Below, piece by piece: positions 6,390 through 27,723 of a stretch of DNA of 64,000 bases (positions within the stretch are counted from its first letter, which is position 1; every line of letters begins with the position of its first letter). This DNA is from an uncultured Alphaproteobacteria bacterium. GTDB taxonomy: Bacteria > Pseudomonadota > Alphaproteobacteria > RF32 > CAG-239. A program made the translations under genes and the position numbers. The notes beneath the pieces were generated by a model. It did not search any database. It had not been told where the DNA came from and was given only the letters and a program-made list of their open reading frames with translations. The DNA lies in NCBI GenBank assembly GCA_934254915.1, contig CAKQMH010000003.1, positions 25,793-89,792 of the forward strand, written 5' to 3'.

Positions 6390-6465
6390 TGGTGAGCTCG
6401 GGCGGGTTCGAACCGCCGACCCTTTGATTAAAAGTCAAATGCTCTACCGACTGAGCTACGAGCCC
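6390..6465 (-). tRNA. tRNA-Lys (anticodon UUU), CCA encoded
   Basis: The reverse complement reads GGGCTCGTAGCTCAGTCGGTAGAGCATTTGACTTTTAATCAAAGGGTCGGCGGTTCGAACCCGCCCGAGCTCACCA. It has a 7-bp acceptor stem with one G-U pair, a GGTTCGAA T-loop and a CTTTTAA anticodon loop. Its 3' end faces the AT-rich island. Confidence 0.9.
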
Positions 6466-7027: not shown

Positions 7028-8704
7028 TTGCTGATGATTATAAAGCTGTTTATCTTTCTGCTGGCATTATCTTTCTTAGCTTTGGCATTTGCGCCCAAAC
7101 GCGGCCTGCGCTTGTGGTCATCGCTCTTTGCGCTTGCGGCGGTTATACTTGCCGTGTGGGTGGCCGGAAATCAAACCTCCGGCATTTTTGCTTCCTATGT
7201 GCATCCCTGGTTGAGCTATGGCAAACTGAAAATATCGTTTAATCTGACCGCCGATTCTTTAGGCCTTAAAACCTTAAGTGCCGTTTTGGCGCTGGCAGCC
7301 TTATTGATTTATTACAATACAATAGCCGCGGTTGACAATTTCCGCCCTCGTCTTAACGGTATTCTGCTGTTGAGCGTTGCCGGGTTTATGCTCTTGTTTT
7401 CCGCTCATGATTTTGTTCAACTTATGATCGGCAGCTGCCTTTATACGGTGCTTGGATTTTATTTGTTGGATGTGGTTGCCGGCAAACGAAAATATTTGTT
7501 TTATAATTTTATCGGTGAAATGGCGCTGTTTACGGCTTTGGCCGTGGTTTACGGCAGTGTCGACAGCGTTAATTTGCCGCAGGCATTGTCTCGCTATCAG
7601 GATTACGGGCAGCATCGCGATTTGGTTACCCTGTTGGTGTCGTTGGCGCTGGTCATAAAATCCGGACTATTCCCGTTCCAAAATCAGTTTCAGGATAATC
7701 GCGGCTTGTCGTTTAGCCGGATTATTGCCGTTACCGCCATTTTAAATCCGCTGGCTTCCCTTGTGCTGCTGCTCAAACTGTCACCATTGCTGCATGCATC
7801 AGCATGGGGTGTTACGGCAATGACGGCGGTTTGTGTGCTTTCGGCACTGTGGGGCGGTGTCGGTATGTTGTTGATTGACAACCTTAAAGCTAAAGTACTT
7901 TACCTTAACCAGAATATTATTGCGTTTATGGCGGTACTGTTGCTGACCAATCCGGTGTCGTTTCCGATTCTTCTGACTATGGTTTTGCCGATAATGGTAA
8001 TTTTGGATTATTTGTGGAGCTTGGTTTATATTTCAGCTTCAAATGAAGTGTATGTTTCGCAAATGGGCGGTTTTGTTAAGTTCTTGAAACTTGATTTGCT
8101 GCTTTTGTGGGGCGGAATTTTAACCTTTGTGCGGATAGCCGCCAATCAGGAATGGTCGAACCTGAAATGGGCTTTGCTCTTTGTCATTACCGCTCTGGTT
8201 GGGTTAGCCCACATTTGCCGCCAAATATATTTTGGGGCGCATCATGCTGATGAACGGGTAGAGGCTTTGTTGCACAATGCTCCGATTCGCACCTGGTTGC
8301 CTCTGGTTGCGGCTATGGCCGTGTTGTGGTATGTTAACACCGCTCCGGCCGTTGACGGCTTCGTTTATGGCGGTGTAGGCTTGTTTGCGGTTGTTTTGCT
8401 GCTCAATCCATTTAAACGGTTAATGCACATGGCCGACAGCGAAATTCAAGATGCTGACGGGGTTGAACAACTGTTCCGGTTTAGTATTTTAATGCCGATA
8501 AAGCTGTTGGGACGAATTTTGTGGATTACCATTGACTTTTTGTTTATTGAACGCACGATTATCGGCTCGGTTTCAGCCTTGAATAATTTTATGGTTAATG
8601 CCTTGCACCGTATTCAAAATGCTGTCTGGCTCAATTATCTGCTGATGGTAGGCTTAGGTGCGGCAATAATGCTTTTTTACATAGGACGGAGTTATTATGA
8701 ATAG
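7028..8704 (+). CDS. nuoL: NADH-quinone oxidoreductase subunit L-like antiporter-type membrane subunit (short form)
   Basis: 558-aa polytopic membrane protein. The motif FVQLMIGSCLYTVLGFYLL...FYNFIGEMALF is loosely NuoL/MrpA-like. Position upstream of clear nuoM-nuoN. Confidence 0.55.
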   Translation: MLMIIKLFIFLLALSFLALAFAPKRGLRLWSSLFALAAVILAVWVAGNQTSGIFASYVHPWLSYGKLKISFNLTADSLGLKTLSAVLALAALLIYYNTIAAVDNFRPRLNGILLLSVAGFMLLFSAHDFVQLMIGSCLYTVLGFYLLDVVAGKRKYLFYNFIGEMALFTALAVVYGSVDSVNLPQALSRYQDYGQHRDLVTLLVSLALVIKSGLFPFQNQFQDNRGLSFSRIIAVTAILNPLASLVLLLKLSPLLHASAWGVTAMTAVCVLSALWGGVGMLLIDNLKAKVLYLNQNIIAFMAVLLLTNPVSFPILLTMVLPIMVILDYLWSLVYISASNEVYVSQMGGFVKFLKLDLLLLWGGILTFVRIAANQEWSNLKWALLFVITALVGLAHICRQIYFGAHHADERVEALLHNAPIRTWLPLVAAMAVLWYVNTAPAVDGFVYGGVGLFAVVLLLNPFKRLMHMADSEIQDADGVEQLFRFSILMPIKLLGRILWITIDFLFIERTIIGSVSALNNFMVNALHRIQNAVWLNYLLMVGLGAAIMLFYIGRSYYE

Positions 8705-10127
8705 TCCTTTTGCTTTATTATCTCTGATTGTGGCGATTCCGTTTTTAGGCTTGCTTTTTGTCCTTACGGCCAAAGGTGACGAGAACAATGGTCGACACAA
8801 TGCTTTCAATGTCTGCGTTTTTACTATTTTGGCCAACATCGTGATGCTGTTCCGCATTTTTATGCTGCTGGATGAAAATTCGCAGAAACTTCAGTTGTTG
8901 GAACATTTTGACTGGCTGAATGAACCGAATGTCAATATTCTGTTCGGGGTAGATACTTTTTCGCTGATTTTGATTTTGGCGGTGCATATCGCGGTTTTAA
9001 TCGGTTTGTCAGGTGTTAAAAACAACACTTTTAAGCAAAAATCCCTAATGGCATATACGTTGCTGTTTTTGAGTATGATTACCGGTCTTTTCGTGGCCGC
9101 GGATATTTTTTCTTTTTATATCTTTTTTGAGGCCATGTTGCTGCCGTTGTTTATGATTATCGGAATGTTCGGGGCTGTCCGCAAACAGGAGCTGATATAC
9201 CGTTTCTTTCTCTACAACCTGCTTGGTGCGTTGGTGTTGTTCAGCGCAACCATGCTGATTTATCATTTCCACGGTTCACTGACTTTGGAACAATTGGGCA
9301 AATTGCGGCTTAAAGGTTCGTTGGCATATTATATTTGGGGCGCGGTATTTTTATCTTTCCTGTCGCGTATTCCGATTTGGCCGTTTCACTATTGGATTTC
9401 ATCAATTAATGCCAACATTCGCAACCCATTGGTTTTTATAATCACCGTGCTGATGCCGTTGACATCGATTTATGGCTTTATTCGCTTCCTGCCGCTCAAG
9501 TTTTCGGCGGTTACGGATGTATATATAATTTGGGTAAGCATTATTGCCGTGATTACCATGCTTTTCATTGCTCTTATCGGGTTTATTAACAAAGACAGCC
9601 AGTATAAACTTTTCTCTTATGTCACGGTTTATTATCTGATGTATTTATTGAGCGCTTTTATGCATGATGTTCTGATTTTGCAAAATGTCGGTTTTTCGTT
9701 GCTTGGTTTTATGCTGATAGTTGCTTCACTGGAGGTCTTGTCCGGCTATATCGCGCAAAAGGAGAATGAATACGGAACAACCGGAACCGGATTTTTGTGC
9801 CGTGTACCGCGGTTGTCGTTTATCTATTCTTATTTAACTTTGGCGGCGGTCGGTATGCCGTTGTCGGCAATTTTCCTGCATAACTTTTTAATATTGTCAA
9901 AGCTGCTTTCTTCCAATATTAAAATGGGTATGGTTCTTATTGCTTCATTGGTTTTGGTCGGCGCGTCGCTGTTGCAGGAACTTTATCAGCACAAAGTTGA
10001 TAATCCCGAATGTCCGATTATCCGGCGGGATGATATTTCGCGGCGGATGTTTGTCTTTATGCTGTTTGTCGGCTTTGTTTTGTTAATGTCGTTTGTCAAA
10101 CCATTATGGTTTGTGATTAATGAATAG
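8697..10127 (+). CDS. nuoM: NADH-quinone oxidoreductase subunit M
   Basis: 476 aa. FYIFFEAMLLPLFMIIGMFG...RFFLYNLLGALVLF matches the conserved NuoM/ND4 core. Overlaps the upstream gene by 8 nt. Confidence 0.75.
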   Translation: MNSPFALLSLIVAIPFLGLLFVLTAKGDENNGRHNAFNVCVFTILANIVMLFRIFMLLDENSQKLQLLEHFDWLNEPNVNILFGVDTFSLILILAVHIAVLIGLSGVKNNTFKQKSLMAYTLLFLSMITGLFVAADIFSFYIFFEAMLLPLFMIIGMFGAVRKQELIYRFFLYNLLGALVLFSATMLIYHFHGSLTLEQLGKLRLKGSLAYYIWGAVFLSFLSRIPIWPFHYWISSINANIRNPLVFIITVLMPLTSIYGFIRFLPLKFSAVTDVYIIWVSIIAVITMLFIALIGFINKDSQYKLFSYVTVYYLMYLLSAFMHDVLILQNVGFSLLGFMLIVASLEVLSGYIAQKENEYGTTGTGFLCRVPRLSFIYSYLTLAAVGMPLSAIFLHNFLILSKLLSSNIKMGMVLIASLVLVGASLLQELYQHKVDNPECPIIRRDDISRRMFVFMLFVGFVLLMSFVKPLWFVINE

Positions 10128-16295: not shown

Positions 16296-18992
16296 ATGAC
16301 TAAATCCGCAGACAAAGCATCTTCCGCCACCCCATTGATGGCACAATATCTGCAAATCAAGCACGAACATCAGGACTACCTTCTGTTTTATCGCATGGGC
16401 GATTTTTATGAGCTGTTTTTTGATGATGCGGTTACGGCATCTAAGGCGTTGGATATTGCTTTGACCAAACGCGGCAAGCTTGATGGTGAAGATATTCCGA
16501 TGTGCGGAGTGCCGTTTCATGCTTACGAAAGCTACTTGGCCAAACTGATACGTCAGGGGTTTAAGGTTGCCATTTGCGAACAGGTCGAAGATCCGGAAGA
16601 AGCCCGTAAACGCGGTTATAAATCAATCGTTAAACGCGATGTTGTCCGGCTTGTCACGGCCGGTACTTTAACCGAAGAACCCTTGCTCGATGCCAAGCGA
16701 AATAACTTTTTGCTGGCGCTGGTCAAACAGGGCGATATTTTGGGCGTGTCATGGCTGGATATCTCCACTGGAGATTTCTTCTTGCAGGAACTCAACCTGC
16801 AGCATCAGGATGAAAATCAGCTGTTAAACAGTATGCTGACCCGGCTTAATCCGGTAGAAATACTGGTCTCGGATATGTATTTGCAAAATCCGCAAATTTT
16901 TGCGGCGCTGAATAATTGCCGCGAGCGGTTGTCAGTCTTGCCGCAGGCTCGCTTTAACAGCGAAAGTGCCAAAAAACGCCTGCAAAATGTTTTCGGCGTC
17001 CAAAGTCTGGATGCTTTCGGCAATTTTACCCGTGCCGAAATCACCGCCGCCGGTGTTTTGTTAGACTATGTTGATAATACGCAAAAAGGCAAAATTCCGG
17101 TAATTTCCCGTCCGCAAAAAGTTGCGGAAAATGCCATTATGGAAATTGACGGCGCTACTCGTCGTTCGTTGGAGCTGGTTGAGGCTATGAACGGCGATAA
17201 AAAATCCAGTTTGTTAGGGGTTATTGACCGCACGGTTACCGGAGCAGGCGGGCGCTTGCTGGCTTCCCGAGTATCAAATCCGCTTAAAGATATTGCCGAA
17301 ATTAATCAGCGGCTTGATGCGATTGAATTTTTCGCTTCGTTTAGCAATTTGCGTCAGGAGCTGCGCCAACTGCTTAAAAGCTGTCCGGATATTGAACGAG
17401 CCGTGTCGCGTTTGACTATCGGGCGGGGCGGCCCTCGTGACTTGGACAGCCTTAAGATTGTTTTGTCGTTAGTTCCGGCGCTCAAAAACTTAATTAACGG
17501 CTTTGCGGATGAAACCAATGAAAAAGTTCTTACTCGCTTGCCTGATGTAGTTAAGCGCATGGTGCAAAACCTTGGCGAGCATAGCAATTTAACCGCGCAT
17601 TTGGATGCAGCCTTGCTGGACGGACGTGACTTGCCGTTGTTGGCGCGGGATGGTGGTTTTATTAGAACCGGCTATTCAGCTCCGCTTGATGAAATTAAAC
17701 GCATTAAGTCTGACAGCCACGGGTTGATTGTGGAGCTGCAAAATCAATACATACAGGCAACCGGCGTCAATAATCTCAAAATTAAGTACAACAATTTAAT
17801 CGGTTACTTTATTGAAGTTCCCAATAAGTTTGCGACCGAAATGCTGGAAAATCCACAATTTATTCATCGGCAGTCGGTACTGAATGCGGCCCGCTTTACC
17901 ACCGTAGAGCTAACCGAACTTGAAAACAAAATTCGCGGCGCGGCCGAAAAAGCTTTAGCTATGGAATTGGCTATTTTTGATGAATTGGTAACCGAAATTA
18001 AAGTATCGGGTGCGGATATTGTCCGCACGGCTAAAGCTCTGGCCGAATTGGATGTGTCGGTATCGTTGGCTGATTTGGCTGTCGAAAAAAATTATACCCG
18101 CCCGGTGGTCGATGAAAGCTTGGTTTTTGAAATTAAGGACGGGCGTCATCCGGTGGTTGAGGATGCCATTGCCCGCGAAAACAGCGGCGTTTTTGTCGGG
18201 AACGATTGCTGCCTTGATGATGAACACGGGCGCTTGTGGCTTTTGACCGGTCCTAATATGGCCGGTAAATCTACATTTTTGCGCCAAAATGCCATCATCG
18301 CCGTTATGGCGCAAATGGGGTCGTTTGTGCCTTGTTCATCAGCACATATCGGCGTTATTGATAAAATCTTTTCACGTGTCGGCGCATCAGATGATTTGGC
18401 GCGCGGCCGTTCGACTTTTATGGTTGAAATGGTTGAGACCGCAAGCATACTTAATCAGGCTGATGAGCGCTCATTTGTTATCTTGGATGAGATTGGCCGC
18501 GGAACGGCGACTTTTGACGGCTTGTCGATTGCTTGGGCGGTAGTTGAACATTTGCATGAAGTCAATAAATGCCGCGCGTTGTTTGCCACTCACTATCATG
18601 AGCTTACCGCGCTGACCTCACGGCTGCACAATATGAGTCTGCACTGTATGAAAATTAAGGAATTTAATGAGCAGGTAGTTTTCCTGCATGAGGTGATTGA
18701 CGGAGCTGCCGACCGTTCTTACGGTATTCATGTTGCCAAGCTGGCCGGATTGCCGCAGGCGGTGGTAAAACGTGCTGAGCAGGTTTTGCAATCACTGGAA
18801 AAAGACGGTAAAAGCAAGTCAATGCAGGATTTGGTTGATGATTTGCCGTTGTTTGCGGCTCTGCGGGAAAAAGAAGAACAGTTTGTGCCGGAGTCGCCGG
18901 CGGTCGTGGCTTTGGAAGAGCTTAATCCTGATGATTTAACCCCCAAACAGGCCTTAGAAAAACTTTATGAGCTGAAAAATTTGTTACATTGA
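16296..18992 (+). CDS. mutS: DNA mismatch repair protein MutS
   Basis: 898 aa. [13 protein letters not shown] Walker A, TFMVEM and DEIGRGT motifs, and the N-terminal mismatch-binding block GDFYELF. Confidence 0.95.
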
Positions 18993-19090
18993 TTTTGTTG
19001 TAAATGTATAAAATAAGCAAAATCAACCAGTTAATAAGTGGTATTATAATACCACTGTCTAATTATTTGTAAAATAATGAAATTTTGTTG

Positions 19091-19118
19091 TTGACTTTAG
19101 TTATCTTTCCTGTATATT
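19091..19118 (+). promoter_or_regulatory. Candidate sigma70 promoter for rplM-rpsI
   Basis: TTGACT at 19091-19096, a 16-nt spacer, then TATATT at 19113-19118, about 40 nt upstream of the rplM start. Confidence 0.35.
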
Positions 19119-19158
19119 CACAGCCGAATAATAACCTTCTTCAAAAAGAGAGAAAACT

Positions 19159-19623
19159 ATGAACACATATGCAACAAAACCCTCTGACATTCAGAGAAAG
19201 TGGTATGTAGTTGACGCTAATGGAGTTGTTTTGGGCCGTCTGGCTGCTGAAATCTCTAAACTCTTGCGCGGCAAACACAAACCCAACTATGTTACCAACC
19301 TTGACTGTGGTGACTATGTCGTTGTTATTAATGCTGACAAAGTTAAATTGACCGGCAAAAAACTGACCGATAAAAAATATTTCAAACACACCGGTTGGAT
19401 TGGCGGTATCAAGGAAACAACTCCGGCTAAGATTTTGGCTGGCAATTTCCCGGAAAGAGTTATCATCAAAGCTGTTGAACGTATGATTTCTCGTAACCCG
19501 ATGGGTCGTCAACAAATGACCAAGTTAAAAGTATACGCTGGTGAAAATCATCCTCACACAGCACAAAACCCTGAAGTTCTGGACATTGCTTCCATGAACC
19601 CGAAGAATAAAAGGAGCGCATAA
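19159..19623 (+). CDS. rplM: 50S ribosomal protein L13
   Basis: [20 protein letters not shown]... is a canonical L13 N-terminus. 154 aa. Confidence 0.95.
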
Positions 19624-19625
19624 CC

Positions 19626-20114
19626 ATGGCTGAAAAAATCGAATCTTTAAAAGACATTAAGAGCGCATCGGTTAAAGTTGCTGCCGCAGAAACTGCCGAA
19701 GTTGTACGCAAAGCCAAAAAAGATAAATTTGGCCGTTCTTATGCAACCGGTAAAAGAAAAGATGCTGTTGCCCGTGTATGGATTAAACCCGGTAAAGGCA
19801 ATATCACCATTAACGAAAAATCAATTGACCAATACTTTGGTCGTCCGGTTTTGAAAATGATTATCAACCAACCTTTCGAAGTTGCTAACCGCGTAAATGA
19901 ATTTGACGTTGTTTGCACTGTAAAAGGTGGTGGCTTGTCTGGTCAGGCCGGTGCAATCAAACACGGTATTTCTAAGGCTTTGAATGAGTTTGAGCCGGAA
20001 TTGCGTGCCGTTTTGAAAAAGGCTGGCTTCCTTACCCGTGATGATCGTACGGTTGAACGTAAGAAATATGGTAAAGCTAAGGCTCGCCGTTCTTACCAAT
20101 TCAGCAAACGTTAA
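19626..20114 (+). CDS. rpsI: 30S ribosomal protein S9
   Basis: Ends ...[11 protein letters not shown], the canonical S9 C-terminus. 162 aa. Confidence 0.95.
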
Positions 20115-20115
20115 T
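20082..20115 (+). repeat. Direct repeat copy A1 (rpsI 3' end)
   Basis: GCTCGCCGTTCTTACCAATTCAGCAAACGTTAAT recurs at 24434-24467 with 2 mismatches, including an exact 19-mer. Confidence 0.8.
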
Positions 20116-20148
20116 CTACGTTGCAAAAAAATATCAGATATTTTCAAT

Positions 20149-20178
20149 GGGTTGCAAGGAATTGCAGCCCATTTTTTT
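20149..20178 (+). terminator. Rho-independent terminator (imperfect) after rpsI
   Basis: GGGTTGCAAGGAATTGCAGCCC followed by ATTTTTTT. Confidence 0.45.
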
Positions 20179-20248
20179 GTGTATGCTCTTGCATTTTGCG
20201 TTTTTGCTACCTACCTAACTAAAAGATATAATTTTAACAAAAGGAGTA

Positions 20249-20713
20249 GTGATGATTGATAAAGAGATAATACCATTAAAAGCCACACGCAAATTACATA
20301 CGCTGTTTTTGCATAATAAAACCTTGTTACAAGATAAAATTTTGCAACAGAAAATAATTTCTTGGGCCGAAGATATGCTGGATGAAGCTCGCAACGCGTG
20401 GTTTGATACACATTCCACAACGATGGAGGCGATAATATCTTGCGCGCGCAAGCAGGAAGCTAAACGAAGAGCCGCAATCAAAGATAAAAAATATGCGCCG
20501 TTCAGAGAATATTTTAAGGATTTGCAATATAAAAAATTCAAGAGCTATCGCAAACAAGGAAAAACGCTTACGGCGAATGCATATGTTAAAATTTTTCTAA
20601 GGAAGAAAGACAAATTAGTGAAAATACCATATAAAAGCAGCAATGCGGAAAACAAGCTGTATCAGTTGGCCCAAGCCAATAATCGGGAATTTAAAAAAGC
20701 TTTTGCGATATAG
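20249..20713 (+). CDS. Hypothetical protein (island 2)
   Basis: 154-aa AT-rich, Lys-rich ORF followed by a strong terminator. No motifs recognised. Confidence 0.4.
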   Translation: MMIDKEIIPLKATRKLHTLFLHNKTLLQDKILQQKIISWAEDMLDEARNAWFDTHSTTMEAIISCARKQEAKRRAAIKDKKYAPFREYFKDLQYKKFKSYRKQGKTLTANAYVKIFLRKKDKLVKIPYKSSNAENKLYQLAQANNREFKKAFAI

Positions 20714-20736
20714 AAATAAAAGAAATTGGTAAGCCT

Positions 20737-20767
20737 AAGAGCCGCTTGACAAGCGGCTCTTATTATT
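20737..20767 (+). terminator. Rho-independent terminator
   Basis: AAGAGCCGC TTGACAA GCGGCTCTT followed by ATTATT. Confidence 0.6.
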
Positions 20768-20808
20768 ATATCTAATTGATAATTAGAATAGGTCAGAGTA
20801 AAAATAAA

Positions 20809-21321
20809 ATGGCAAAAAATAATAACTCCAAATATCTTAAAAGCGTTTTGCTGGTTCTCTCAACCTTAATTTTTCCTTTGCAAATTTTTAGCGTTGTTCT
20901 TTATTTTGTTCCTGCTTTATATACCTGTATTCTTGTGCCTTATTTTATATGGAAAATTTGGTTTGGTAAAGAAGGCCAAAAAATAAAAATATATTCTTTG
21001 TTTTGGAAAGTTCCCGTTATACTTTTTGTTGCATTTACCATATGTTACGTAGAGATATTGTTGCTTTTTATTATCTTTGCAACAGGAATGCCGTTGGTTG
21101 GAAAAATTATAATATTTGTCTTTTTGCTGTTTTTATTACGTTGTCTAGCCTATGCAATGATGATTTTCATATGGCAATCCGGTATTTTGAAACCATATAA
21201 GATATGGGGGTATGTAGGTGTAATATTATATTGTCTTGCAAATTCATATTTTATCTATTCTATTCAAAATGCTCCGGATACAGATGATTATAGCGTTCCA
21301 CTTTCAGAATATTTGAAATAA
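20809..21321 (+). CDS. Hypothetical polytopic membrane protein
   Basis: ORF track 20776..21321, probable start MAKNNNSKY. Four or five hydrophobic helices. AT-rich. Confidence 0.35.
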   Translation: MAKNNNSKYLKSVLLVLSTLIFPLQIFSVVLYFVPALYTCILVPYFIWKIWFGKEGQKIKIYSLFWKVPVILFVAFTICYVEILLLFIIFATGMPLVGKIIIFVFLLFLLRCLAYAMMIFIWQSGILKPYKIWGYVGVILYCLANSYFIYSIQNAPDTDDYSVPLSEYLK

Positions 21322-21331
21322 AAGGGAGATT

Positions 21332-21547
21332 GTGATGCACTCATACAAAGATACATTAAAAAATATTGGTAAAATTGTAAAAAAAATCTTTTTGTATTTG
21401 TTTTCGCTTATAATCATAGGAATTGTCGCCGGAATTTCGTTCTTTTTTATGGTGGAACAAAGCAACAAGCCGTGTGATGAGCAATTTATACATGGCTGTA
21501 TGGCGGCTGGTATGAGCGAACAAGCTTGTAAAGATAAGTTATATTAA
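21332..21547 (+). CDS. Small hypothetical membrane protein
   Basis: 71 aa with a single TM helix and a C-terminal Cys pair. Confidence 0.3.
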   Translation: MMHSYKDTLKNIGKIVKKIFLYLFSLIIIGIVAGISFFFMVEQSNKPCDEQFIHGCMAAGMSEQACKDKLY

Positions 21548-21623
21548 AAACAGAGCTTGTCAGAAATGGCGAGTTCTTTCTTAAAATGTTTAACTTTATG
21601 AATTTTTTAAGGATAAAACCAAG

Positions 21624-21920
21624 TTGCGGGTAACCGATGCTTATTCCCGTAGTATGGCGCAAAATCATATGACCCAAGATTTAAACCATGTCCGTAAGGA
21701 ATTTAGTGATTTTGATAATTTACCGCTACCGTTAAAAGAGGTATTGCTAGACATACAATATAATGTAAGAGGAGGAATAACTAAAACAAAATGGCCTAAT
21801 CTTTATGCCGCAATCGCTAACCGCGATGTTGATGGCATAATTAAGAATGTCCACCGTAAAGATATAGGGCAAGATCGGAATGATTGGGCAGAAAGAATGG
21901 CTCGTTCAATCAGATTCTGA
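21624..21920 (+). pseudogene. Phage-type (GH24/T4-like) lysozyme, C-terminal fragment only
   Basis: ...LPLPLKEVLLDIQYNVRGGITKTKWPNLYAAIANRDVDGIIKNVHRKDIGQDRNDWAERMARSI resembles the C-terminal helical lobe of phage lysozymes. The catalytic N-terminal E...D...T region is absent and no upstream frame supplies it. Confidence 0.45.
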
Positions 21921-22346
21921 TTCTTTATAATCAGGTGGAGTGGTGCAGTAATTACTCAAAGAAGCTAAATGAGGAAAATCTTTAGGCGTATCATAAGAAT
22001 ATTCTTCAATATGCAAACAGTTAGGCAAAAATTTTTCTTTAATTACATAGTTAAAATAGCCGCTATTTTTTGAACCGTCAAACCACTCACCATCACACTT
22101 TAAGGTAATGCGATCTTGTTCATTTTCGACAAGGTCGCATTTGCCAACATAATCTATTTTATCTTTATCAAACAATTGGCTGAATTTAACAGATGTTGGT
22201 GTTAAGTAAGCATAGCCTGTTGTTTTGCCTAATGGTCTCAAAAGTTGATTAAAAATCGGATTTTTAAATTCCTTATCATAGCCCTTAACTGAGCTGCACG
22301 CTGCAACCAATAATCCTAAAAACAACAATATCTTTTTCATCAACAC
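21906..22346 (-). CDS. Lipoprotein, hypothetical
   Basis: MLMKKILLFLGLLVAACSS: signal peptide with LVAAC lipobox. 146 aa. Confidence 0.5.
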   Translation of the reverse strand: MLMKKILLFLGLLVAACSSVKGYDKEFKNPIFNQLLRPLGKTTGYAYLTPTSVKFSQLFDKDKIDYVGKCDLVENEQDRITLKCDGEWFDGSKNSGYFNYVIKEKFLPNCLHIEEYSYDTPKDFPHLASLSNYCTTPPDYKESESD

Positions 22347-22508
22347 CTCACTATCTTAGTAGTTGTAATAATAATTTTACTATCACAAAAAGTCAATGCA
22401 AAATGTTGAAATCTTTTAATATATTTAATCAATAATATAATTTATAGACTCTAAGTCATTTTTATGCTAAACTTATATTATAGGTTGAGTTCACGAAAGG
22501 ACTGCGCG

Positions 22509-23471
22509 ATGGAAGAAGACGATGAAAAAAAGCCGGATGACGGCGAAAATAAAGAGCAACTTAAAGCGCGCAAAAAGAGAAAACGCAAAATTCGTCGTGG
22601 TAAAGCTCTCATTGGTATGGGCAAAGTAATTACCGGCACCGGTAAGGCGGTTGCTTTTGGCGGTAAAGCCACCAGAGCTATGGGCAAAGCGGTATCCGCC
22701 GCCGGTAAAGCTTTGGTTAAAGTTTCGCAAGCAATGCGCAAAGCCGGGCAAGCTATCATTCGATCCGGTGCTGCTTTGGTTAAAGCTGGTGTCGCCGCTT
22801 GTTCAACCGGTATAGGAGCGTTGGCCGGCGTTCCCATGATTGCAGCCGGTTCTGCTATGGTTGCCGTTGGTGCGGCCACCGTTGCGGCCAGTATCCCCAT
22901 AACCTTAGCCGGACATGCTATGGATATCGCCGGACGCGCTGTCCAAAAAGTCGGTAATATGATTGAAAAAATGGGAAAAATGATTCAAAAACCCGGTAAT
23001 GAGCTGCAAAGAAGAGGGCAGGAGATTTGCCGCAGCGCCGGTAAAGAGGTTCAGATTGATGTTCCGCAACAAACCAATGAAAACAGCCGTAGCGATGGTG
23101 ATAACAGTAATGATCGGGGGGTGAGCCTTGCCAATCTGGCAACTTTAGTTATGGCTCTGTCGGGGCGTGATTCAGCACGTGAAAACAAACTTTCAACTAC
23201 CGGTAATGAAAAACAGCCACAAAAAACCACTGAGAATAAGGAGCAAAACAAGCCGGTTACGGTTGAAGAAAATGCACCCTCATCATCAAACGAGCCTAAC
23301 CAAAACGATTCTAATTCTAATCAGCCGAACTCCAATAAACAGGCTAAGCGTTTGTTACAGTTGCGCGGAATGACGCCCAAAGGCAGCAAACGAAAAACTT
23401 CCCCGTCTCCGCAACGGCAACAATCTATATCCCCGTTGCAGATAACGCAGGGACGCGGAGGCGGAAGATAA
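22509..23471 (+). CDS. Repeat-containing protein with basic NLS-like motif, heptad GKAxxxx repeats, hydrophobic segment and N/Q/S-rich tail (candidate host-targeted effector)
   Basis: The probable start MEEDDEKK at 22509 follows an AAGGA Shine-Dalgarno sequence (ORF track 22464..23471). The motif KARKKRKRKIRRGK is followed by a degenerate 7-aa repeat array (GKALIGM GKVITGT GKAVAFG GKATRAM GKAVSAA ...). After the repeats come an Ala/Gly-rich hydrophobic stretch and then a low-complexity N/Q/S/P tail. Confidence 0.5.
   Translation: MEEDDEKKPDDGENKEQLKARKKRKRKIRRGKALIGMGKVITGTGKAVAFGGKATRAMGKAVSAAGKALVKVSQAMRKAGQAIIRSGAALVKAGVAACSTGIGALAGVPMIAAGSAMVAVGAATVAASIPITLAGHAMDIAGRAVQKVGNMIEKMGKMIQKPGNELQRRGQEICRSAGKEVQIDVPQQTNENSRSDGDNSNDRGVSLANLATLVMALSGRDSARENKLSTTGNEKQPQKTTENKEQNKPVTVEENAPSSSNEPNQNDSNSNQPNSNKQAKRLLQLRGMTPKGSKRKTSPSPQRQQSISPLQITQGRGGGR
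22599..22800 (+). repeat. Degenerate 21-bp tandem repeat array (encodes the heptad repeats)
   Basis: ggtaaagctctcattggtatg / ggcaaagtaattaccggcacc / ggtaaggcggttgcttttggc / ggtaaagccaccagagctatg / ggcaaagcggtatccgccgcc ... Confidence 0.6.
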
Positions 23472-23535
23472 AAATTATCATGTCCGTTAAAATGCCACCT
23501 TTTAAAAATATCACCTTTGAAAAATCTCGTTTGAT

Positions 23536-23759
23536 TTAAGCGGCTTGTTTCCAGCGGCCATTGGCGTCTTGTTGCCAATAAAAACATTCATGCCCTTTTT
23601 TCTTGAGTTCTTTCCAAAAAGCACGGGCTTGCATTAATGCCGCTTCTGAATTGCCGTCAAATATATTAAACACGCGCTCAAAGTTGCCTAATTCGTCGAC
23701 TTTTGCTTCTGCTCCGTCCACCAAAAACAGCAGTCTTGCCAAATTAGGATTATCATCAC
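23536..23759 (+). repeat. Direct repeat copy B1 (holC 3' end, about 224 bp, about 97% identical to 25018-25241)
   Basis: Base-by-base comparison shows 5 mismatches in the first 45 nt, then identity up to ...attatcatcac, after which the flanks diverge. Confidence 0.8.
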
Positions 23760-23814
23760 TGTAAAGCAAACTATAACGCTGCGACAAGAGGTCCTTTAGG
23801 ATATAACACGGCAA
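23536..23814 (-). pseudogene. Duplicated 3' fragment of holC (DNA polymerase III chi subunit)
   Basis: The C-terminal 75 aa are nearly identical to the C-terminus of full-length holC at 25018..25473. The N-terminal 17 aa are unrelated. Confidence 0.6.
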
Positions 23815-24039
23815 AATATTTAGGTGATACGAAAGAAAAGTTTGATTTTTATTGGAATCAATTATATAAAGGTAAAAGCGAACAAGAAACTATAGACGAC
23901 AGAAATCATGATTTAGGTGTTAATGCAATAGGAAGATTGAGAGGAGATTCTGGACTATATAATAGTGCACAAGATGCGTGTGCAGATTATCGCCTGAAGA
24001 ATCCATCATTTCCTAAAAAATATTGGTAGTGATAATCAA

Positions 24040-24423
24040 ATGTTTCATTCAAAAATTTTCAAACTTTGTTGTTTAATAGTTATCAGTTGTTTTGCAATTT
24101 GGAAAATATACATTTTTTTGGAGCAAAATAGTTGTTTAGATAACGGAAATGTTTGGGATTATCAAGAAAATCGTTGTCGTGAAGATTGTTTAGTCTGGAA
24201 TAAAATAAACGGTTGTATAAAAATGACGGCTGAACAAGTAAAAATATTCAAAGATTGCCGCCATAAAGAGGTAGGTTGTGTTTCCAAAAAAGTTTTTGAT
24301 GAAATATGTTTGAACAACAATATGCCGTTAAATAAAAAAACAGGAGAATGTGATATAGAGTTTACATTAGATAAATGTTATAAACTCGGTGAAAATTGGA
24401 TTTATCCAACAACCTGTAAATGA
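24040..24423 (+). CDS. Cys-rich small secreted or membrane-anchored protein (immunity-protein-like)
   Basis: 127 aa with a hydrophobic N-terminus and 12 Cys. It begins 10 nt after an upstream start-less toxin-like fragment. Confidence 0.4.
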   Translation: MFHSKIFKLCCLIVISCFAIWKIYIFLEQNSCLDNGNVWDYQENRCREDCLVWNKINGCIKMTAEQVKIFKDCRHKEVGCVSKKVFDEICLNNNMPLNKKTGECDIEFTLDKCYKLGENWIYPTTCK

Positions 24424-24433
24424 ATGAATATAA

Positions 24434-24467
24434 GCTCGTCGTTCTTATCAATTCAGCAAACGTTAAT
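24434..24467 (+). repeat. Direct repeat copy A2 (duplicate of rpsI 3' end)
   Basis: GCTCGTCGTTCTTATCAATTCAGCAAACGTTAAT matches the end of rpsI at 20082-20115. It is followed by a separate strong terminator. Confidence 0.8.
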
Positions 24468-24493
24468 ATTTGCGAGAATTACAAAATTCGGAA

Positions 24494-24520
24494 AGAGGCA
24501 ACATTTTGCCTCTTTTTTTT
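24494..24520 (+). terminator. Rho-independent terminator (likely the ancestral rpsI terminator)
   Basis: AGAGGCAA CATT TTGCCTCT followed by TTTTTTT. An A-run follows, so it may act in both directions. Confidence 0.65.
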
Positions 24521-24684
24521 GTAAAAAAAATATGTTATAATAAACTTAGTAAAAATATTATTATGCTATATCATTATTAATCTTCATATTCTTTTGAACA
24601 TGGTTAATTTGATATTCGGCTTAGCATAATAATTTTAAAAATAAAAAATTATGAATCCGGAGCCGAGGTTCAAATAAAAAGATT

Positions 24685-24921
24685 ATGAAAAATTTTGTAA
24701 AAAAAGCTATCCTTTGGATAGATGAGAACCCGTCTTGTACTATGTTTTTGCTTTTCACAATCGGTTTAATTGTGGCTTGCATTAAATGGGAAATCATACC
24801 TGGTATTCTGTTCATTCCTGCTACAATTACGATTGTATTAGATATTTTCATAATAGCAATATGCTTGGCAATGGCAAACAAAAAGCTATGGAATCGCATT
24901 ATGTCCTGGGGTAGAAAATAA
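24685..24921 (+). CDS. Small membrane protein, hypothetical
   Basis: 78 aa with two TM helices, followed by a perfect hairpin terminator. Confidence 0.35.
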   Translation: MKNFVKKAILWIDENPSCTMFLLFTIGLIVACIKWEIIPGILFIPATITIVLDIFIIAICLAMANKKLWNRIMSWGRK

Positions 24922-24923
24922 AA

Positions 24924-24968
24924 GAAAACGTGCATCTCTGATTTTTCAGAGAGCACGTTTTCTTTTAT
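24924..24968 (+). terminator. Rho-independent terminator
   Basis: GAAAACGTGCATCTCTGA TTTT TCAGAGAGCACGTTTTC followed by TTTTATT. Confidence 0.6.
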
Positions 24969-25017
24969 TAATCTTAACACCGGCAAAGTTTAACTCTTAA
25001 AAATATTTCCTGCCCAA

Positions 25018-25473
25018 TTAAGCAGCTTGTTTCCAGCGACCATTGGTATCTTGCTGCCAATAAAAACATTCATGCCCTTTTTTCTTGAGTTCTTTCCAAA
25101 AAGCACGGGCTTGCATTAATGCCGCTTCTGAATTGCCGTCAAATATATTAAACACGCGCTCAAAGTTGCTTAATTCGTCGACTTTTGCTTCTGCTCCGTC
25201 CACCAAAAACAGCAGTCTTGCCAAATTAGGATTATCATCACCGCTGGTCAGCCAAATCGGCTGCAATTCAGCGTTACCGTCTTTCTTGCTGCCATGGGGT
25301 AAGAATGATTGGTCGTTATATGTCCATAGCAGGGCATTCAGAAATTCAACACGTTCATCGTTTCCGACTTTTACGATAATGCTTTTTTTAGTTTCATAAG
25401 CCTTTTCCAATAGTTTGGGCAATACCCCGTCCAAACTTTGGCTTTGCAAATGATAAAAATCAACTCTGGTCAT
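25018..25473 (-). CDS. holC: DNA polymerase III subunit chi
   Basis: 151 aa. MTRVDFYHLQSQSLDGVLPKLLEKAY...LLWTYNDQSFLPHG is typical HolC. Confidence 0.8.
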   Translation of the reverse strand: MTRVDFYHLQSQSLDGVLPKLLEKAYETKKSIIVKVGNDERVEFLNALLWTYNDQSFLPHGSKKDGNAELQPIWLTSGDDNPNLARLLFLVDGAEAKVDELSNFERVFNIFDGNSEAALMQARAFWKELKKKGHECFYWQQDTNGRWKQAA

Positions 25474-26846
25474 TTTTTTTCCAATTTCACTGCCACAAAA
25501 TGGGGGACGTTATTATCTTCAATCAACAACAATACCGGACGGTGGTTTTCCGCCCTGGCATCAGCAATATATGTTCTGACATCATTAAGGTCAAAAACCG
25601 TTTTCTTGTCAATTTGGGTGATAATGCTGCCTTTTTTTAATCCTTTATTTTCCGCATCACTTCCAGATTTAACTTCGCTGATTATGACGCCGCGGCCGGC
25701 TGAGGCCGTTTGTTTGTCATCAGCCGACAGTTCCTCAAGGCGTAAACCCAATTCATTAAAATTGCTGTTGTCGGTTGGTAAAGTCGCTTTGATACGCGGT
25801 GCTTCTTCTTTATCTTCCGGCATTTTTTCAATCGTAACGATTTTATCGATTTCTATTTCTCCGCGTTTGATTTTCAACTTTACTTTTTGTCCGATTGCCA
25901 ATTCGGCAATCGTGAGTGACAGCTCTTTGGTATCTTCCATGATTTTGTTATTGACGCTTAGGATTATATCTCCGGCTTCAATTCCGGCTTTAGCCGCACC
26001 GGATCCGACCGTAACATCCGAAATAATAACCCCGTGTGCCGCCGAATTATTGCTGCCTTCATAAGGTTGAATTTTAATGCCGATCCAACCGCGCTCAACT
26101 TTGCCTTTTTCCAACAATTGATTGATAACAAATTTTACGGTGTTAACCGGCATTGCAAAACCGATACCCATATTTGTTCCCGTGGTCGAAAAAATCGCCG
26201 TGTTGATACCGATTACTTCTCCGTTCAGGTTAAACATCGGCCCGCCCGAACTTCCTTGATTGATTGAGGCATCGGTTTGTAAAAAATCATCATAAGGACC
26301 GGCTTCAATATCACGTGATTTGGCTGAAATAATGCCGGCTGACACACTTCCGCCCAACCCGAAAGGACTGCCGATTGCCAAAACCCAATCTCCGACCCTC
26401 ATCTTATCGGAATCACCGAAATGTGTCGTCGGCAATTTGTCCTTAACGTCTATTTTGAGCAGTGCAATATCGGTTTTGGCATCGCTGCCGATTATCTTTG
26501 CCGTATAATGTCGTTTGTCATTTAAGGTAATGTTTATTTCATGTGCATCTTTAATGACATGGCGATTGGTGATAATAAAACCGTTTTCCCGAATGATAAA
26601 ACCTGAGCCTAGCGAAATATGCTGCGGGTTTTCTGAAAACAAAAATCGTTCTTCAGGCAGCAGGTGCGGATTCTGTTCCAGAAAATCATCATTATTTTCG
26701 GCCAATGAGGTGGTCGAAACATTAACCACGGCGGGTTGTAATTTTTCCACCAAATCCGCAAAAGACGGAAGCTGCTGCGCTCTGACCGTCAGGGCGCAGC
26801 AAAGTCCGCCGATAATTAAGCCTAATGCCAAACTTTTTTGCCGCAT
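25470..26846 (-). CDS. degP: Periplasmic serine endoprotease DegP/HtrA (trypsin-like plus two PDZ domains)
   Basis: GNSGGPMFNLNGEVIGINTAIFS active-site block and HV...D...IALLKI. The probable start MRQKSLALGLIIGG (signal peptide) at 26846 sits 1 nt from the hflC stop. The ORF track extends to 26987. Confidence 0.85.
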   Translation of the reverse strand: MRQKSLALGLIIGGLCCALTVRAQQLPSFADLVEKLQPAVVNVSTTSLAENNDDFLEQNPHLLPEERFLFSENPQHISLGSGFIIRENGFIITNRHVIKDAHEINITLNDKRHYTAKIIGSDAKTDIALLKIDVKDKLPTTHFGDSDKMRVGDWVLAIGSPFGLGGSVSAGIISAKSRDIEAGPYDDFLQTDASINQGSSGGPMFNLNGEVIGINTAIFSTTGTNMGIGFAMPVNTVKFVINQLLEKGKVERGWIGIKIQPYEGSNNSAAHGVIISDVTVGSGAAKAGIEAGDIILSVNNKIMEDTKELSLTIAELAIGQKVKLKIKRGEIEIDKIVTIEKMPEDKEEAPRIKATLPTDNSNFNELGLRLEELSADDKQTASAGRGVIISEVKSGSDAENKGLKKGSIITQIDKKTVFDLNDVRTYIADARAENHRPVLLLIEDNNVPHFVAVKLEKK

Positions 26847-26847
26847 A

Positions 26848-27723
26848 TTATTTGGCTTTCGGGGTCTGGTTGAAAAAGTCAAAAAATTCCGCATTCGGCG
26901 ATAAAACCATTGCCGTATTGCCTTTTTCGGCCATGGCATTTTTATAAGCTTCAAGTGAGCGGTAAAACGCATAGAACTGCGGGTCAAGGTTAGCCGCCTT
27001 ATTCCAAATCATAATGGCTTCCTGATCGCCTTCACCACGAATAATCTGCGCTTGTTTTTCAGCTTCTGTTACGATGATGGTTTGTTCTTTTTCGGCAGTG
27101 GCGCGGATTTTTTGAGCTTCCTGCTTACCGGTGGCGCGAAATTCTTTGGCATCGCGTTCGCGTTCGGCTTTCATACGGGCATTAATCGCCTGCAAAACCT
27201 CAACCGGCAAATCAGCTCGGCGAATACGAACATCCGCCACACTGACCCCGATTTGTTCAGCATCAATCTTCACCGCGTTGCTGATATCAGCCATGATTTG
27301 CGTTCTTTTTTGGGATAACAGTTCTTGCAAAGTTATACGTCCCAAAATTTTGCGCAGCGAAGAATTAACGATTTCCTCCAACTTGCTGCGGGCTTGCATT
27401 TCCGTACGTACGGTTTTGTAATAGCGCAGCGGATCAACGATTTTGTAGCGGGTAAAACTGTCAACGTCTAAACGTTTTTTATCATTCAAAACCACTTCTT
27501 GTGCCGGCGGATCCAGATTAAGCAAACGATTGTCATAAAACACCACATTTTGAATAAACGGGATTTTCATCTTTAATCCGGGGTCTTTAATTTCGCGCAC
27601 CGGTTCGCCGAATTGCAGTACAATTGCCTGTTCGGTCTGTTCGACAATATAAAAAGTGTTTACCAAAACAAGGATAATAACCGCGGCTGCTCCGCCCCAA
27701 AACATTTTCAACTTATCGCTCAT
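26848..27723 (-). CDS. hflC: Protease modulator HflC (band-7/SPFH)
   Basis: 291 aa. N-terminal TM helix followed by IVEQTEQAIVLQFGEP. Sits in the hflK-hflC-degP order. Confidence 0.85.
   Translation of the reverse strand: MSDKLKMFWGGAAAVIILVLVNTFYIVEQTEQAIVLQFGEPVREIKDPGLKMKIPFIQNVVFYDNRLLNLDPPAQEVVLNDKKRLDVDSFTRYKIVDPLRYYKTVRTEMQARSKLEEIVNSSLRKILGRITLQELLSQKRTQIMADISNAVKIDAEQIGVSVADVRIRRADLPVEVLQAINARMKAERERDAKEFRATGKQEAQKIRATAEKEQTIIVTEAEKQAQIIRGEGDQEAIMIWNKAANLDPQFYAFYRSLEAYKNAMAEKGNTAMVLSPNAEFFDFFNQTPKAK

Follow-up and report, generated by a model that had tools for sequence, protein, structure and literature searches.

A truncated holC 3' end between rpsI and holC as a probable scar of stacked illegitimate recombination in an uncultured gut alphaproteobacterium

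The locus between rpsI and holC in the stretch of DNA analysed here (64,000 nt in all; hereafter "the window") carries an orphan 3' fragment of holC, which we regard as a recombination scar and not a working element, left by two microhomology-mediated joins between diverged haplotypes of a cassette-shuffling hotspot (probability roughly 0.7). The features on which this reading draws are as follows, in window coordinates:

19626-20114, + strand: intact rpsI (ribosomal protein S9, 162 aa), a full-length profile match to Pfam PF00380 (E 7e-51)
20082-20115, + strand: A1, the terminal 34 nt of the working rpsI, which recur at 24434-24467
20116-23535, no strand: s1, a variable low-GC spacer made up of ORFan cassettes (for the most part 29-37% GC)
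20124-20178, + strand: T1, the native rpsI terminator region (terminator scan, blastn and alignment)
23536-23759, - strand: B1, the orphan holC 3' end (stop codon plus 73 codons plus 2 nt)
23536-23814, - strand: 92-aa chimeric ORF, the holC' pseudogene (ORF list and Pfam)
23748-23759, no strand: J1, a putative illegitimate junction with an 11-nt microhomology (from alignment of a gene of strain L094 to window 23740-23880 and to holC)
23748-24029, + strand: 3' remnant of a serum-amyloid-A (SAA)-like gene, 93 codons plus stop with no start codon, truncated at J1
24040-24423, + strand: ORF127, a small Cys-rich protein with a hydrophobic N-terminus (ORF list and strain comparison)
24432-24438, no strand: J2, a second putative illegitimate junction (sequence comparison)
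24434-24467, + strand: A2, an orphan rpsI end of 34 nt with its stop codon (repeat search and alignment)
24468-25017, no strand: s2, a 550-bp AT-rich spacer (GC 27-32%) with no called gene
24494-24520, + strand: T2, a terminator hairpin and T-run following the orphan rpsI end, unrelated to T1
25018-25241, - strand: B2, the 3' 224 nt of the functional holC (repeat search and pairwise alignment)
25018-25473, - strand: intact holC (DNA polymerase III chi subunit, 151 aa; Pfam PF04364, E 8e-34)

The initial annotation had described a duplication of the holC tail at about 97% identity, with flanks diverging sharply at both ends, and repeat search with pairwise alignment bears this out: B1 and B2 form a gap-free direct repeat of 224 nt with 6 mismatches (97.3%), the copies being spaced 1482 nt apart and neither flank aligning any further. 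Its first bases are exactly those of the holC stop codon (TTA on the + strand), and the longest stretch identical between the copies is 115 nt. As a whole-window scan found this pair to be the sole repeat of at least 45 nt within the 64 kb, its occurrence lies far beyond chance. That the fragment sits 1.5 kb "upstream" is true of window coordinates, where its numbers are the lower ones; in the sense of the gene, however, it lies downstream of the holC 3' end. To call it "copied" likewise captures a real repeat but misleads as to its nature, since the differences between the copies are allele-like. B1 is identical at 224/224 positions to the 3' end of the working holC in the unduplicated strain L088, of the 15 sites that vary among all B copies, 13 are third positions with synonymous changes, and most B-copy variants are also seen in the working holC of unduplicated strains. 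Because the differences are mostly synonymous and B1 states occur in working holC elsewhere, they represent allelic differences rather than pseudogene decay. From these allele comparisons, B1 is more aptly viewed as a tail that one holC allele left in place, with B2 and the sequence beyond its stop codon belonging to a different haplotype.

The intact 151-aa HolC matches positions 1-133 of the 135-position DNA_pol3_chi profile (117 bits) and is 64-84% identical to the HolC of 80 related genomes, with degP adjoining in every one. The 92-aa ORF matches PF04364 at positions 85-133 of 135 only (27.7 bits): its residues 20-92 correspond to HolC 79-151 with 2 substitutions, and its N-terminus is read from the antisense strand of the truncated SAA-like gene. 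ORF structure, Pfam and this antisense origin thus concur with the earlier description of a foreign N-terminus fused to the authentic HolC C-terminus. The ORF begins with TTG, and a promoter scan found no promoter-like site just upstream. Having holC homology without an essential part of the domain (by Pfam coverage), the truncated 3' fragment is a holC pseudogene fragment and almost certainly non-functional; gene calls of 83-92 aa annotated as "DNA_pol3_chi" deserve to be flagged as fragments.

The second repeat, A1/A2, spans 34 nt with 2 mismatches, both synonymous, and ends 1 nt past the TAA stop. Downstream of the two rpsI ends lie unrelated sequences, as is also the case beyond the two holC stops. 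A 54-nt element of T1 is conserved at 78-97% after rpsI in four other species (blastn identity 92-94% to L003, L011, L012 and L021), whereas T1 and T2 are only 37% alike by alignment; s1 (3.4 kb) and s2 (0.55 kb) have nothing in common by repeat search. The interleaved order A1-B1-A2-B2 (i.e., rpsI-end, holC', rpsI', holC) given in the initial annotation is correct, and 674 bp of third-party DNA, namely the SAA-like remnant and ORF127, separates B1 from A2.

The spacer between rpsI and holC is a hotspot exchanging small accessory cassettes between strains, in keeping with its earlier designation as such: cassette content differs among strains, and cassette order and content within s1 vary across those compared (L083, L087, L088, L090 and L094). 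In the window, s1 contains ORF154, ORF181, ORF71, the lysozyme-toxin remnant ORF98, the lipoprotein ORF146 and a 335/320-aa protein, with ORF98 equivalent to the C-terminus of a 320-aa phage-lysozyme/pesticin-like protein of L090. The SAA-like remnant shares 86.7% nucleotide identity with L094 4680-5367, where the gene is intact at 246 aa (Pfam PF00277 SAA, E 6e-9 for the remnant and E 5.6e-13 for the full L094 gene), and ORF127, the partner gene of the SAA-like gene, has paralogues of 86-88% identity elsewhere in the island of other strains. The cassettes include toxin-like and secreted ORFans (lysozyme/pesticin-like, SAA-like with its Cys-rich partner, and others). A palindromic hairpin in s2 (24920-24966, ~50 nt past the holC stop; fold -41.7 kcal/mol, z = -6.3) is probably holC's bidirectional terminator. 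When s1, s2 and the flank designated x were compared with the loci of other species by blastn and tblastx, matches were confined to holC itself and the T1 element.

No mobile-element genes lie nearby. Pfam and NCBIfam gave no matches for the s1 ORFs (NCBIfam being run on eight island proteins), and no recombinase match was found in any ORF of 20115-25017 or in the precomputed Pfam annotation of the neighbours; integrase, recombinase, excisionase and transposase genes are all absent between mutS and hflK. The tRNA scan placed the sole tRNA of the window at 6390, with none near the repeats, the window holds no inverted repeat of at least 45 nt, and an Rfam search over 18500-26000 returned just two sub-threshold snoRNA chance matches, inside the repeats. 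A transposon or IS target-site duplication (2-14 bp) was rejected as a candidate, given repeats of 224 and 34 nt, no transposase and no inverted repeat of that size.

Both inner boundaries coincide with short matches between otherwise unrelated sequences. At J1, the 11-nt GATTATCATCA is common to holC (where it also occupies 25230-25240) and to the SAA-like gene; the intact 246-aa gene of L094 reads ...TTAGATGATTATCATCATTGTAAAGC..., holC reads ...TTAGGATTATCATCACCGCTGG..., and the window follows holC as far as GATTATCATCAC and the SAA-like gene beyond, position 23759 (C) being of the holC type. At J2, AAGCTCG/GCTCG (~5-7 nt) is common to the 5' stem of the ORF127-type terminator, which reads AAAAAGCTCGCTATT...GGCGGGCTTTTTT in L088 and L094, and to rpsI (AAGGCTCG), which reads AAGGCTCGCCGTTC, with the window switching from one to the other at GCTCG. 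A microhomology of the ~3-12 nt class, common to both parents, is thus present at J1 as well as J2, the parents being represented by paralogous or allelic copies 86-88% identical (L094, L088) and not by the true parents. The J2 match, at 5-7 nt, is short. At least two successive recombination events are needed, as had been proposed in the initial annotation.

We propose that the locus is made up of three haplotype pieces joined at two illegitimate junctions. Piece P1 would run from rpsI through T1 and s1 to the final 224 nt of one holC allele; P2 would consist of the SAA-like gene's 3' portion and ORF127; and P3 would begin with the final 34 nt of an rpsI, pass through T2 and s2 to the present working holC allele and go on into degP. 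The 11-nt match at J1 would link P1 to P2, and GCTCG at J2 would link P2 to P3. DNA from another strain would be anchored at one end by homology in a flanking core gene and joined at the other at a short chance match; because such a join is one-sided, the incoming DNA would be added rather than swapped, and the tail of the resident core gene would be left behind. To judge from the sequence, the most likely one-sided route would be homology-facilitated illegitimate recombination (HFIR). The order of the two events and the side bearing the homologous anchor can only be suggested, as mosaic SNP tracts prevent order or polarity from being fixed. Illegitimate joins during conjugative or transductional entry, or template switching in break repair, would be alternative entries giving like scars. 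Subsequently, RecA-type recombination between the 224-bp repeats could delete the 1482-bp unit, restoring a single holC, or could convert one copy by the other.

A comparative look at the locus, as suggested alongside the initial annotation, finds the insertion in some strains and missing from four assemblies of the same species (L088, L107, L111 and L112), in which s1 runs straight into a full-length holC with exactly one 1482-bp repeat unit missing. The unit thus segregates as an insertion/deletion among strains. In L107, where s1 lies on the left and holC on the right, the five left sites are of the B1 type and offset 152 is of the B2 type, which is the hybrid expected from deletion between the repeats. 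L097 displays the reciprocal hybrid: it is flanked by s2 on the left and by x on the right, and changes from B2 states at its left sites to B1-type states at its right ones. A circle or an additional tandem copy would be expected to give this pattern; the L097 contig, assembled with MEGAHIT, could be chimeric. In L084, divergence is confined to the orphan B1, where 9 of 224 nt differ, the flanks differing at only about 0.5%, and 6 of these 9 private variants (108C, 117A, 135A, 138C, 141T and 195T) are found in the working holC of L112. Relative to the window, L088 diverges by 0.14% in s1, by ~2% over 25018-26000 and by 0.3% beyond; L087, L088 and the window carry mosaic combinations of alleles, with the 5' part of the L088 holC matching the duplicated strain L087, and P3 passes seamlessly into holC and degP. 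The ~2% block over 25018-26000 hints at an imported tract, but mosaicism with L087 undermines its use in polarising the event.

Beyond the species, relaxed tblastn and self-blastn detected no orphan holC or rpsI tails in the loci of 80 related species. Repeats starting at the holC stop in L041, L042 and L050 were rejected as holC copies, being shared terminators of a tandem paralogue array. The presumed parental arrangement of P3, a full rpsI followed by T2, s2 and holC, was absent among contigs anchored on RpsI, HolC, HflC, ORF127 or the 320-aa protein, and one metagenome pattern scan with a 22-mer from the A2/T2 junction returned only the contig already known.

An assembly artefact, whether a strain-mixture chimera or a repeat expansion in metagenome assembly, is extremely improbable as the source of this structure. 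The window is a metagenome contig built by MEGAHIT (k141; identical to ERZ27287330 k141_506722), the strain data all come from short-read assemblies of metagenomes, and samples of this kind contain several strains of the species at once. However, seven independent assemblies bearing SNPs of their own span J1 (the boundary of holC' and insert), namely the window contig, L087, L089 (whose sequence is seen in 5 samples), L083, L084, L085 and L096; A2-s2-B2 is spanned by L082, L096 and L097, and L087 (31.7 kb) repeats the entire arrangement from mutS to hflK at 98-99% identity. Seven assemblies that differ in sample, project and assembler contain B1 together with both unique flanks, 98-100% identical. 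The initial annotation had raised the possibility of such an artefact, with a single real copy; recurrence with own SNPs in independent assemblies from other samples speaks against this. The copies are moreover resolvable, as their longest identical run is shorter than k = 141. The Logan k=31 contigs L091, L108, L109, L113 and L114 break inside B, and the repeat is presumably present in those samples; L088, L111 and L112, also Logan contigs, cross B unbroken. It is because of the 224-bp repeat that short-k assembly breaks inside holC in this species.

In-situ tandem duplication of the interval bounded by the 3' ends of rpsI and holC, with subsequent divergence of the spacers and insertion of the SAA-like gene and ORF127 at the junction, would predict the order A1-B1-A2-B2, and microhomology junctions are typical of such events too. 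We nonetheless consider this scenario, raised in the initial annotation as tandem duplication followed by divergence, unlikely: the units are not collinear (neither the two terminators nor s1 and s2 correspond), the unrelated DNA between B1 and A2 has its own microhomology junction at each end, and the copy differences, mostly synonymous and present in working alleles, do not resemble neutral decay. It would also require at least four events against two. Site-specific integration of one or two islets at the rpsI and holC 3' ends, with the repeats as attL/attR, would explain why each repeat runs from inside a gene exactly to its stop, leaving the gene intact as at tRNA-type islands, and would suit the low-GC interior. 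It is very unlikely all the same, since serial site-specific insertions would generate nested or side-by-side repeats instead of interleaved ones, an att core of 224 bp would be very long, no recombinase genes lie between mutS and hflK and no tRNA is at hand, tail duplication of holC or rpsI occurs in 0/80 related species, and chance microhomology with unrelated genes accounts for the inner ends.

The remaining readings would grant the repeat or its ORF a function. Were the 92-aa ORF a functional mini-protein, i.e., a selected HolC C-terminal domain acting, for example, as an SSB-tail-binding decoy or regulator, its intactness, the preponderance of synonymous sites and the identity of its product in L083, L084 and L085 despite the 9 nucleotide differences in L084 would all be accounted for. 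Those synonymous variants, however, cluster in a short tract between near-identical flanks, and most recur in the full-length working holC of L112, so that they were imported by recombination or conversion and not accumulated under selection; synonymous-only variation was accordingly rejected as a sign of selection on the ORF. With about half of the chi fold missing (Pfam profile positions 1-84), a TTG start lacking any promoter-like site in the scan, and absence from four strains and all 80 related species, a functional mini-protein is highly improbable. It is also quite unlikely that the 1482-bp unit constitutes a reversible, RecA-driven presence/absence or copy-number switch operating via the 224-bp repeats. 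The unit so switched would contain the SAA-like remnant, ORF127, rpsI' and s2, and the L097 hybrid suggests circle or tandem forms. If such a switch existed, strains would regain the unit by plain homologous recombination, with the orphan holC tail as a portable homology arm, and an accessory cassette would stay mobile within the species without a recombinase; in a bolder variant, the 92-aa HolC-C ORF may itself be expressed and functional.

The preferred reading, of two stacked one-sided joins, has experimental precedent. A passage of PMC6382021 documents HFIR with 3-10 bp of junction microhomology in S. pneumoniae, A. baylyi and P. stutzeri, citing experiments that include Meier and Wackernagel 2003. 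As in those cases, one end of the added DNA would lie here in continuous core-gene homology and the other would be joined at a few bases (11 nt and ~5-7 nt, compared with 3-10 bp in experiments), foreign DNA being added and resident sequence partly duplicated or replaced with no recombinase gene. Unlike those cases, the events at this locus are deduced from variation in natural populations of an uncultured gut alphaproteobacterium rather than from experiment, the "foreign" DNA would be another haplotype of the same locus, and both core-gene tails are duplicated, with two events stacked. The locus is an ordinary genome-plasticity scar and reveals no new molecular system. It would nonetheless offer a clean natural case, at the population level in uncultured gut alphaproteobacteria, of how an accessory-gene hotspot between core genes is constructed, i.e., by one-sided illegitimate recombination rather than clean homologous replacement, with the core-gene tails then serving as direct repeats for deletion, conversion and possibly amplification.

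Bacterial hotspots of horizontal gene transfer are core-gene-flanked sites with content turned over by homologous recombination in the flanks. The present locus is alike in that rpsI and holC-degP are conserved while the content between them varies by strain and species, and in that presence or absence of the 1482-bp unit is exchangeable by ordinary homologous recombination; it differs in that ordinary turnover replaces cleanly, leaving no core-gene tails, so that the tails here would mark rarer one-sided events. With integrative elements of the tRNA/tmRNA type it shares a gene 3' end and an orphan copy thereof as a direct repeat bounding low-GC accessory DNA, but not an integrase or tRNA, and the 224-bp repeat, the interleaved second repeat and the microhomology at the inner boundaries set it apart.

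Displaced orphan modules are found downstream of polymorphic toxin genes in the cdiA-CT/cdiI and rhs-CT arrays. These too are hotspots of small toxin- or immunity-like cassettes, in which recombination anchored in conserved sequence adds modules, older ones remain as truncated fragments, and the fragments left behind begin with a piece of the conserved gene. In contrast to those arrays, the anchors at the present locus would be the flanking housekeeping genes rpsI and holC rather than a toxin gene, and the window region yielded neither a secretion-system gene nor any toxin-delivery domain that could be recognised. The comparable remnants in the window are ORF98 (the lysozyme-toxin C-terminus), the SAA-like 3' remnant, holC' and rpsI'.

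A repeat search of positions 19000-27000 returned a single 224-nt direct repeat (23536-23759 versus 25018-25241; 97% identity, spacing 1482 nt), for which pairwise alignment gave six mismatches, no gaps, an abrupt drop in similarity at both flanks, and a repeat start coinciding exactly with the holC stop codon. The same search returned a 34-nt repeat of the rpsI end (20082-20115 versus 24434-24467) that stops one base past the TAA and carries two mismatches, both synonymous; a scan of the whole 64-kb window found no further repeats of at least 45 nt. ORF calls and Pfam matches gave the following gene order:

mutS, rplM, rpsI: strand +, first in the order
after rpsI: low-GC stretch with no family matches
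23536-23814: strand -, 92-aa ORF matching the DNA_pol3_chi profile in its last third only
24040-24423: ORF127, to the right of the 92-aa ORF and followed by the orphan rpsI tail
24468-25017: spacer s2 (550 bp, AT-rich), between the rpsI tail and intact holC
25018-25473: intact holC (151 aa), followed by degP, hflC and hflK

The initial annotation had therefore described the sequence correctly as to the 97% repeat, its sharp flanks, the 92-aa ORF, and the rpsI repeat. Within s2, a spacer otherwise without genes, a 47-nt near-perfect palindrome (24920-24966; RNA fold -41.7 kcal/mol, z = -6.3) lies ~50 nt beyond the holC stop and is probably a bidirectional terminator. Where the holC start overlaps the degP end (25473-25475), a 1-nt indel with adjacent substitutions separates the window from the strains represented by contigs L087 and L088, and the called DegP length differs alongside it (470 versus 473 aa).

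HolC-anchored loci were taken from 80 species-level genomes, all of uncultured gut alphaproteobacteria; since the closest HolC among these is only 84% identical, the window's species is absent from them. There, holC adjoins degP in 80/80 cases, and in some rpsI-rplM-mutS lies 3-10 kb past holC with variable intervening content. Exact-protein look-ups recovered many same-species contigs from other samples, and the window is identical to ENA ERZ27287330 k141_506722. L087, L089, L083, L084, L085, and L096 read across the boundary at which the holC fragment gives way to the DNA on its right, each with unique sequence on either side and its own strain-specific SNPs; L087 is a 31.7-kb contig with the complete mutS-to-hflK structure, and L089 occurs in five samples. 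L082, L096, and L097 extend from the rpsI tail across s2 to the side of holC. Because independent contigs span the junction, and because the longest identical run between the orphan holC end (B1) and its functional counterpart (B2) is 115 nt, i.e., shorter than the k = 141 at which the window contig was assembled, an assembly artefact is excluded for practical purposes; the second copy, which the initial annotation had flagged as possibly artefactual, recurs in other samples' assemblies and is not a one-assembly structure.

The 1482-bp unit is a segregating insertion/deletion among strains. In L088, L107, L111, and L112, the 320-aa gene of spacer s1 (20116-23535) leads into full-length holC and degP without interruption, with exactly one unit missing. 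Logan k=31 contigs L088, L111, and L112 cross the 224-nt segment unbroken, so the absence is genuine in those samples; Logan contigs L091, L108, L109, L113, and L114 end inside the segment, as expected for two copies.

The interleaved repeat order had been attributed to successive recombination events or, alternatively, to a tandem duplication followed by divergence. We reject the decayed duplication: (i) the terminator region after the orphan rpsI tail (T2) is a different terminator, only 37% alike to that after functional rpsI (T1, 20124-20178), a terminator element retained behind rpsI, with 78-97% conservation, in four other species; (ii) s1 and s2 share no sequence in the 19000-27000 repeat search; and (iii) copy differences are mostly synonymous and allele-like, with 13 of 15 variable sites among all 224-nt copies being synonymous third positions. 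Window B1 is identical to the working holC tail of L088. In L084 the orphan copy shows nine synonymous differences that cluster in the fragment itself (flanks ~0.5% diverged); six of them (108C, 117A, 135A, 138C, 141T, 195T) also occur in the working holC of L112. Because of the synonymous pattern, the L088 identity, and the sharing of L084 variants with L112, B1 and B2 are best read as alleles that come from separate haplotypes and that recombination later exchanged or converted, rather than as an intact gene beside a decaying duplicate; the synonymous-only pattern is, for that reason, no argument for a functional 92-aa ORF.

The T1 stretch (54 nt, AAAATATCAGATATTTTCAATGGGTTGCAAGGAATTGCAGCCCATTTTTT) is 92-94% identical in blastn matches to the other-species loci L003, L011, L012, and L021, where RpsI proteins differ by 7-12%; it is more conserved than a plain terminator requires. 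It has no Rfam match, and in L090 it is duplicated (8499-8552, 9376-9429) in front of the ORF154 cassette.

At the junction of the holC fragment with a serum-amyloid-A (SAA)-like gene remnant (J1), the window reads AAATTAGGATTATCATCAC/TGTAAAGC, the holC continuation ...GATTATCATCAC/CGCTGG, and the intact SAA-like gene ...TTAGATGATTATCATCAT/TGTAAAGC; the comparison therefore places the switch on the 11-nt identity GATTATCATCA (23748-23758). At the junction of the ORF127 terminator with the rpsI tail (J2), in L088 and L094 the terminator that follows the ORF127-type gene reads AAAAAGCTCGCTATTAATTAATGGCGGGCTTTTTT, rpsI reads AAGGCTCGCCGTTC, and the window reads ATAAGCTCGTCGTTC, with the switch on GCTCG (24432-24438). 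Judged by sequence, both junctions bear the hallmarks of illegitimate, microhomology-mediated joining. Pfam/NCBIfam analysis of island proteins, neighbour annotation, and a tRNA scan revealed no integrase, transposase, or tRNA near the repeats, and, on their defining features, the structure qualifies neither as an integrase island or a transposon nor as a simple tandem duplication.

The simplest account would be two events, both importing DNA from another haplotype of the locus, each with one end in ordinary homology (the rpsI side or the holC/degP side) and the other at chance microhomology, i.e., homology-facilitated illegitimate recombination (HFIR). Such an event would add DNA rather than replace it, leaving the resident core gene's tail behind, and two stacked events would yield the interleaved order; of the initial alternatives, successive recombination is the one supported. 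HFIR is documented, in the account available from PMC6382021, in three transformable species, with junctions of 3-10 bp. Divergence between the window and L088 is 0.14% in s1, ~2% over 25018-26000, and 0.3% beyond. The ~2% block would fit imported DNA ending by homologous crossover in degP, but alleles are mosaic among strains, which weakens any reading of polarity. In its behaviour the structure matches a scar of HFIR; it is real, varies among strains, and can be interpreted mechanistically. Genome-plasticity scars of this kind are well documented, and the structure is not a new system, only the organism and locus being new.

Recombination between the repeats may be ongoing. In L107, s1 lies to the left and holC to the right of a tail with B1 states at the five left diagnostic sites and the B2 state at offset 152, exactly the product that would be expected of a B1 x B2 deletion. 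L097 is the reciprocal case: s2 precedes a tail whose bases are B2 at its left and B1-type at its right, followed by the flank that lies right of B1; at positions 1108-1337 (sample ERZ27287162), s2 leads through this hybrid holC tail into the initial 6 nt of the SAA-like remnant. This junction would be expected of an excised 1482-bp circle or an extra (third) tandem unit, and is suggestive only, as L097 is a MEGAHIT contig and could be chimeric. The B2 base at offset 152 in the L087 orphan copy is consistent with conversion.

Two components make up the 674 bp that separate the holC fragment from the rpsI tail: the SAA-like remnant and its downstream partner, ORF127. The remnant corresponds to the last 93 codons (3' end) of a gene that is intact in L094 (246 aa) and encodes a serum-amyloid-A domain; the match to Pfam PF00277 reaches E 5.6e-13 with the complete L094 gene and 6e-9 with the remnant in the window. 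This bacterial SAA-domain protein (L094 4221-4961; window 23748-24029, strand +, 3' remnant only) is encoded beside the small, Cys-rich, secreted-looking ORF127, and paralogous copies (86-88% identical) occupy other island positions in other strains. ORF98 (21624-21920, strand +) is a remnant that preserves only the C-terminus of a phage-lysozyme/pesticin-like protein of 320 aa, which is intact in L090 (10066-11028); overlapping it on the opposite strand is a 146-aa lipoprotein-like ORF (21906-22346, strand -) that could be its immunity partner. This remnant and the overlapping putative immunity ORF suggest that the island carries toxin/immunity-type cassettes. The structure as a whole may resemble the arrays of orphan modules at polymorphic toxin loci.

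Cassette order and content differ among strains, bearing out the hotspot proposed initially: L090 has rpsI, ORF181, ORF71, and ORF154; in L088, rpsI is immediately followed by an ORF127 paralogue and then by no more than the 3' part of ORF154; in L094, 158 nt of the ORF154 3' end (window 20549-20706) are duplicated and flank the SAA-like/ORF127 pair (L094 3657-5654); and in L083, a 574-aa Y_Y_Y protein replaces the left part of the window's spacer. The locus is a shuffling hotspot strewn with truncated gene ends, and given the ORF154-end scars in L094 and L088, the holC and rpsI tails are not its only such relics. L088 8586-9110 keeps only the orphan ORF154 tail of the type of scar seen in L094. 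The gene adjoining the holC tail is always a 335-aa ORFan (22464-23471, strand +; called as 320 aa) of ~50% GC, high for the island, with no family match. Its sequence includes KKRKRKIRRGK, a run rich in Lys and Arg; 21-aa repeats in tandem (22599-22711), rich in Gly, Ala, and Lys; and a tail rich in Asn, Gln, and Ser. In other species (L041 10452-14600, L042, L050), three to four paralogous genes of ~320 aa stand in tandem immediately after holC on the opposite strand, with the same terminator after every paralogue, also common to holC.
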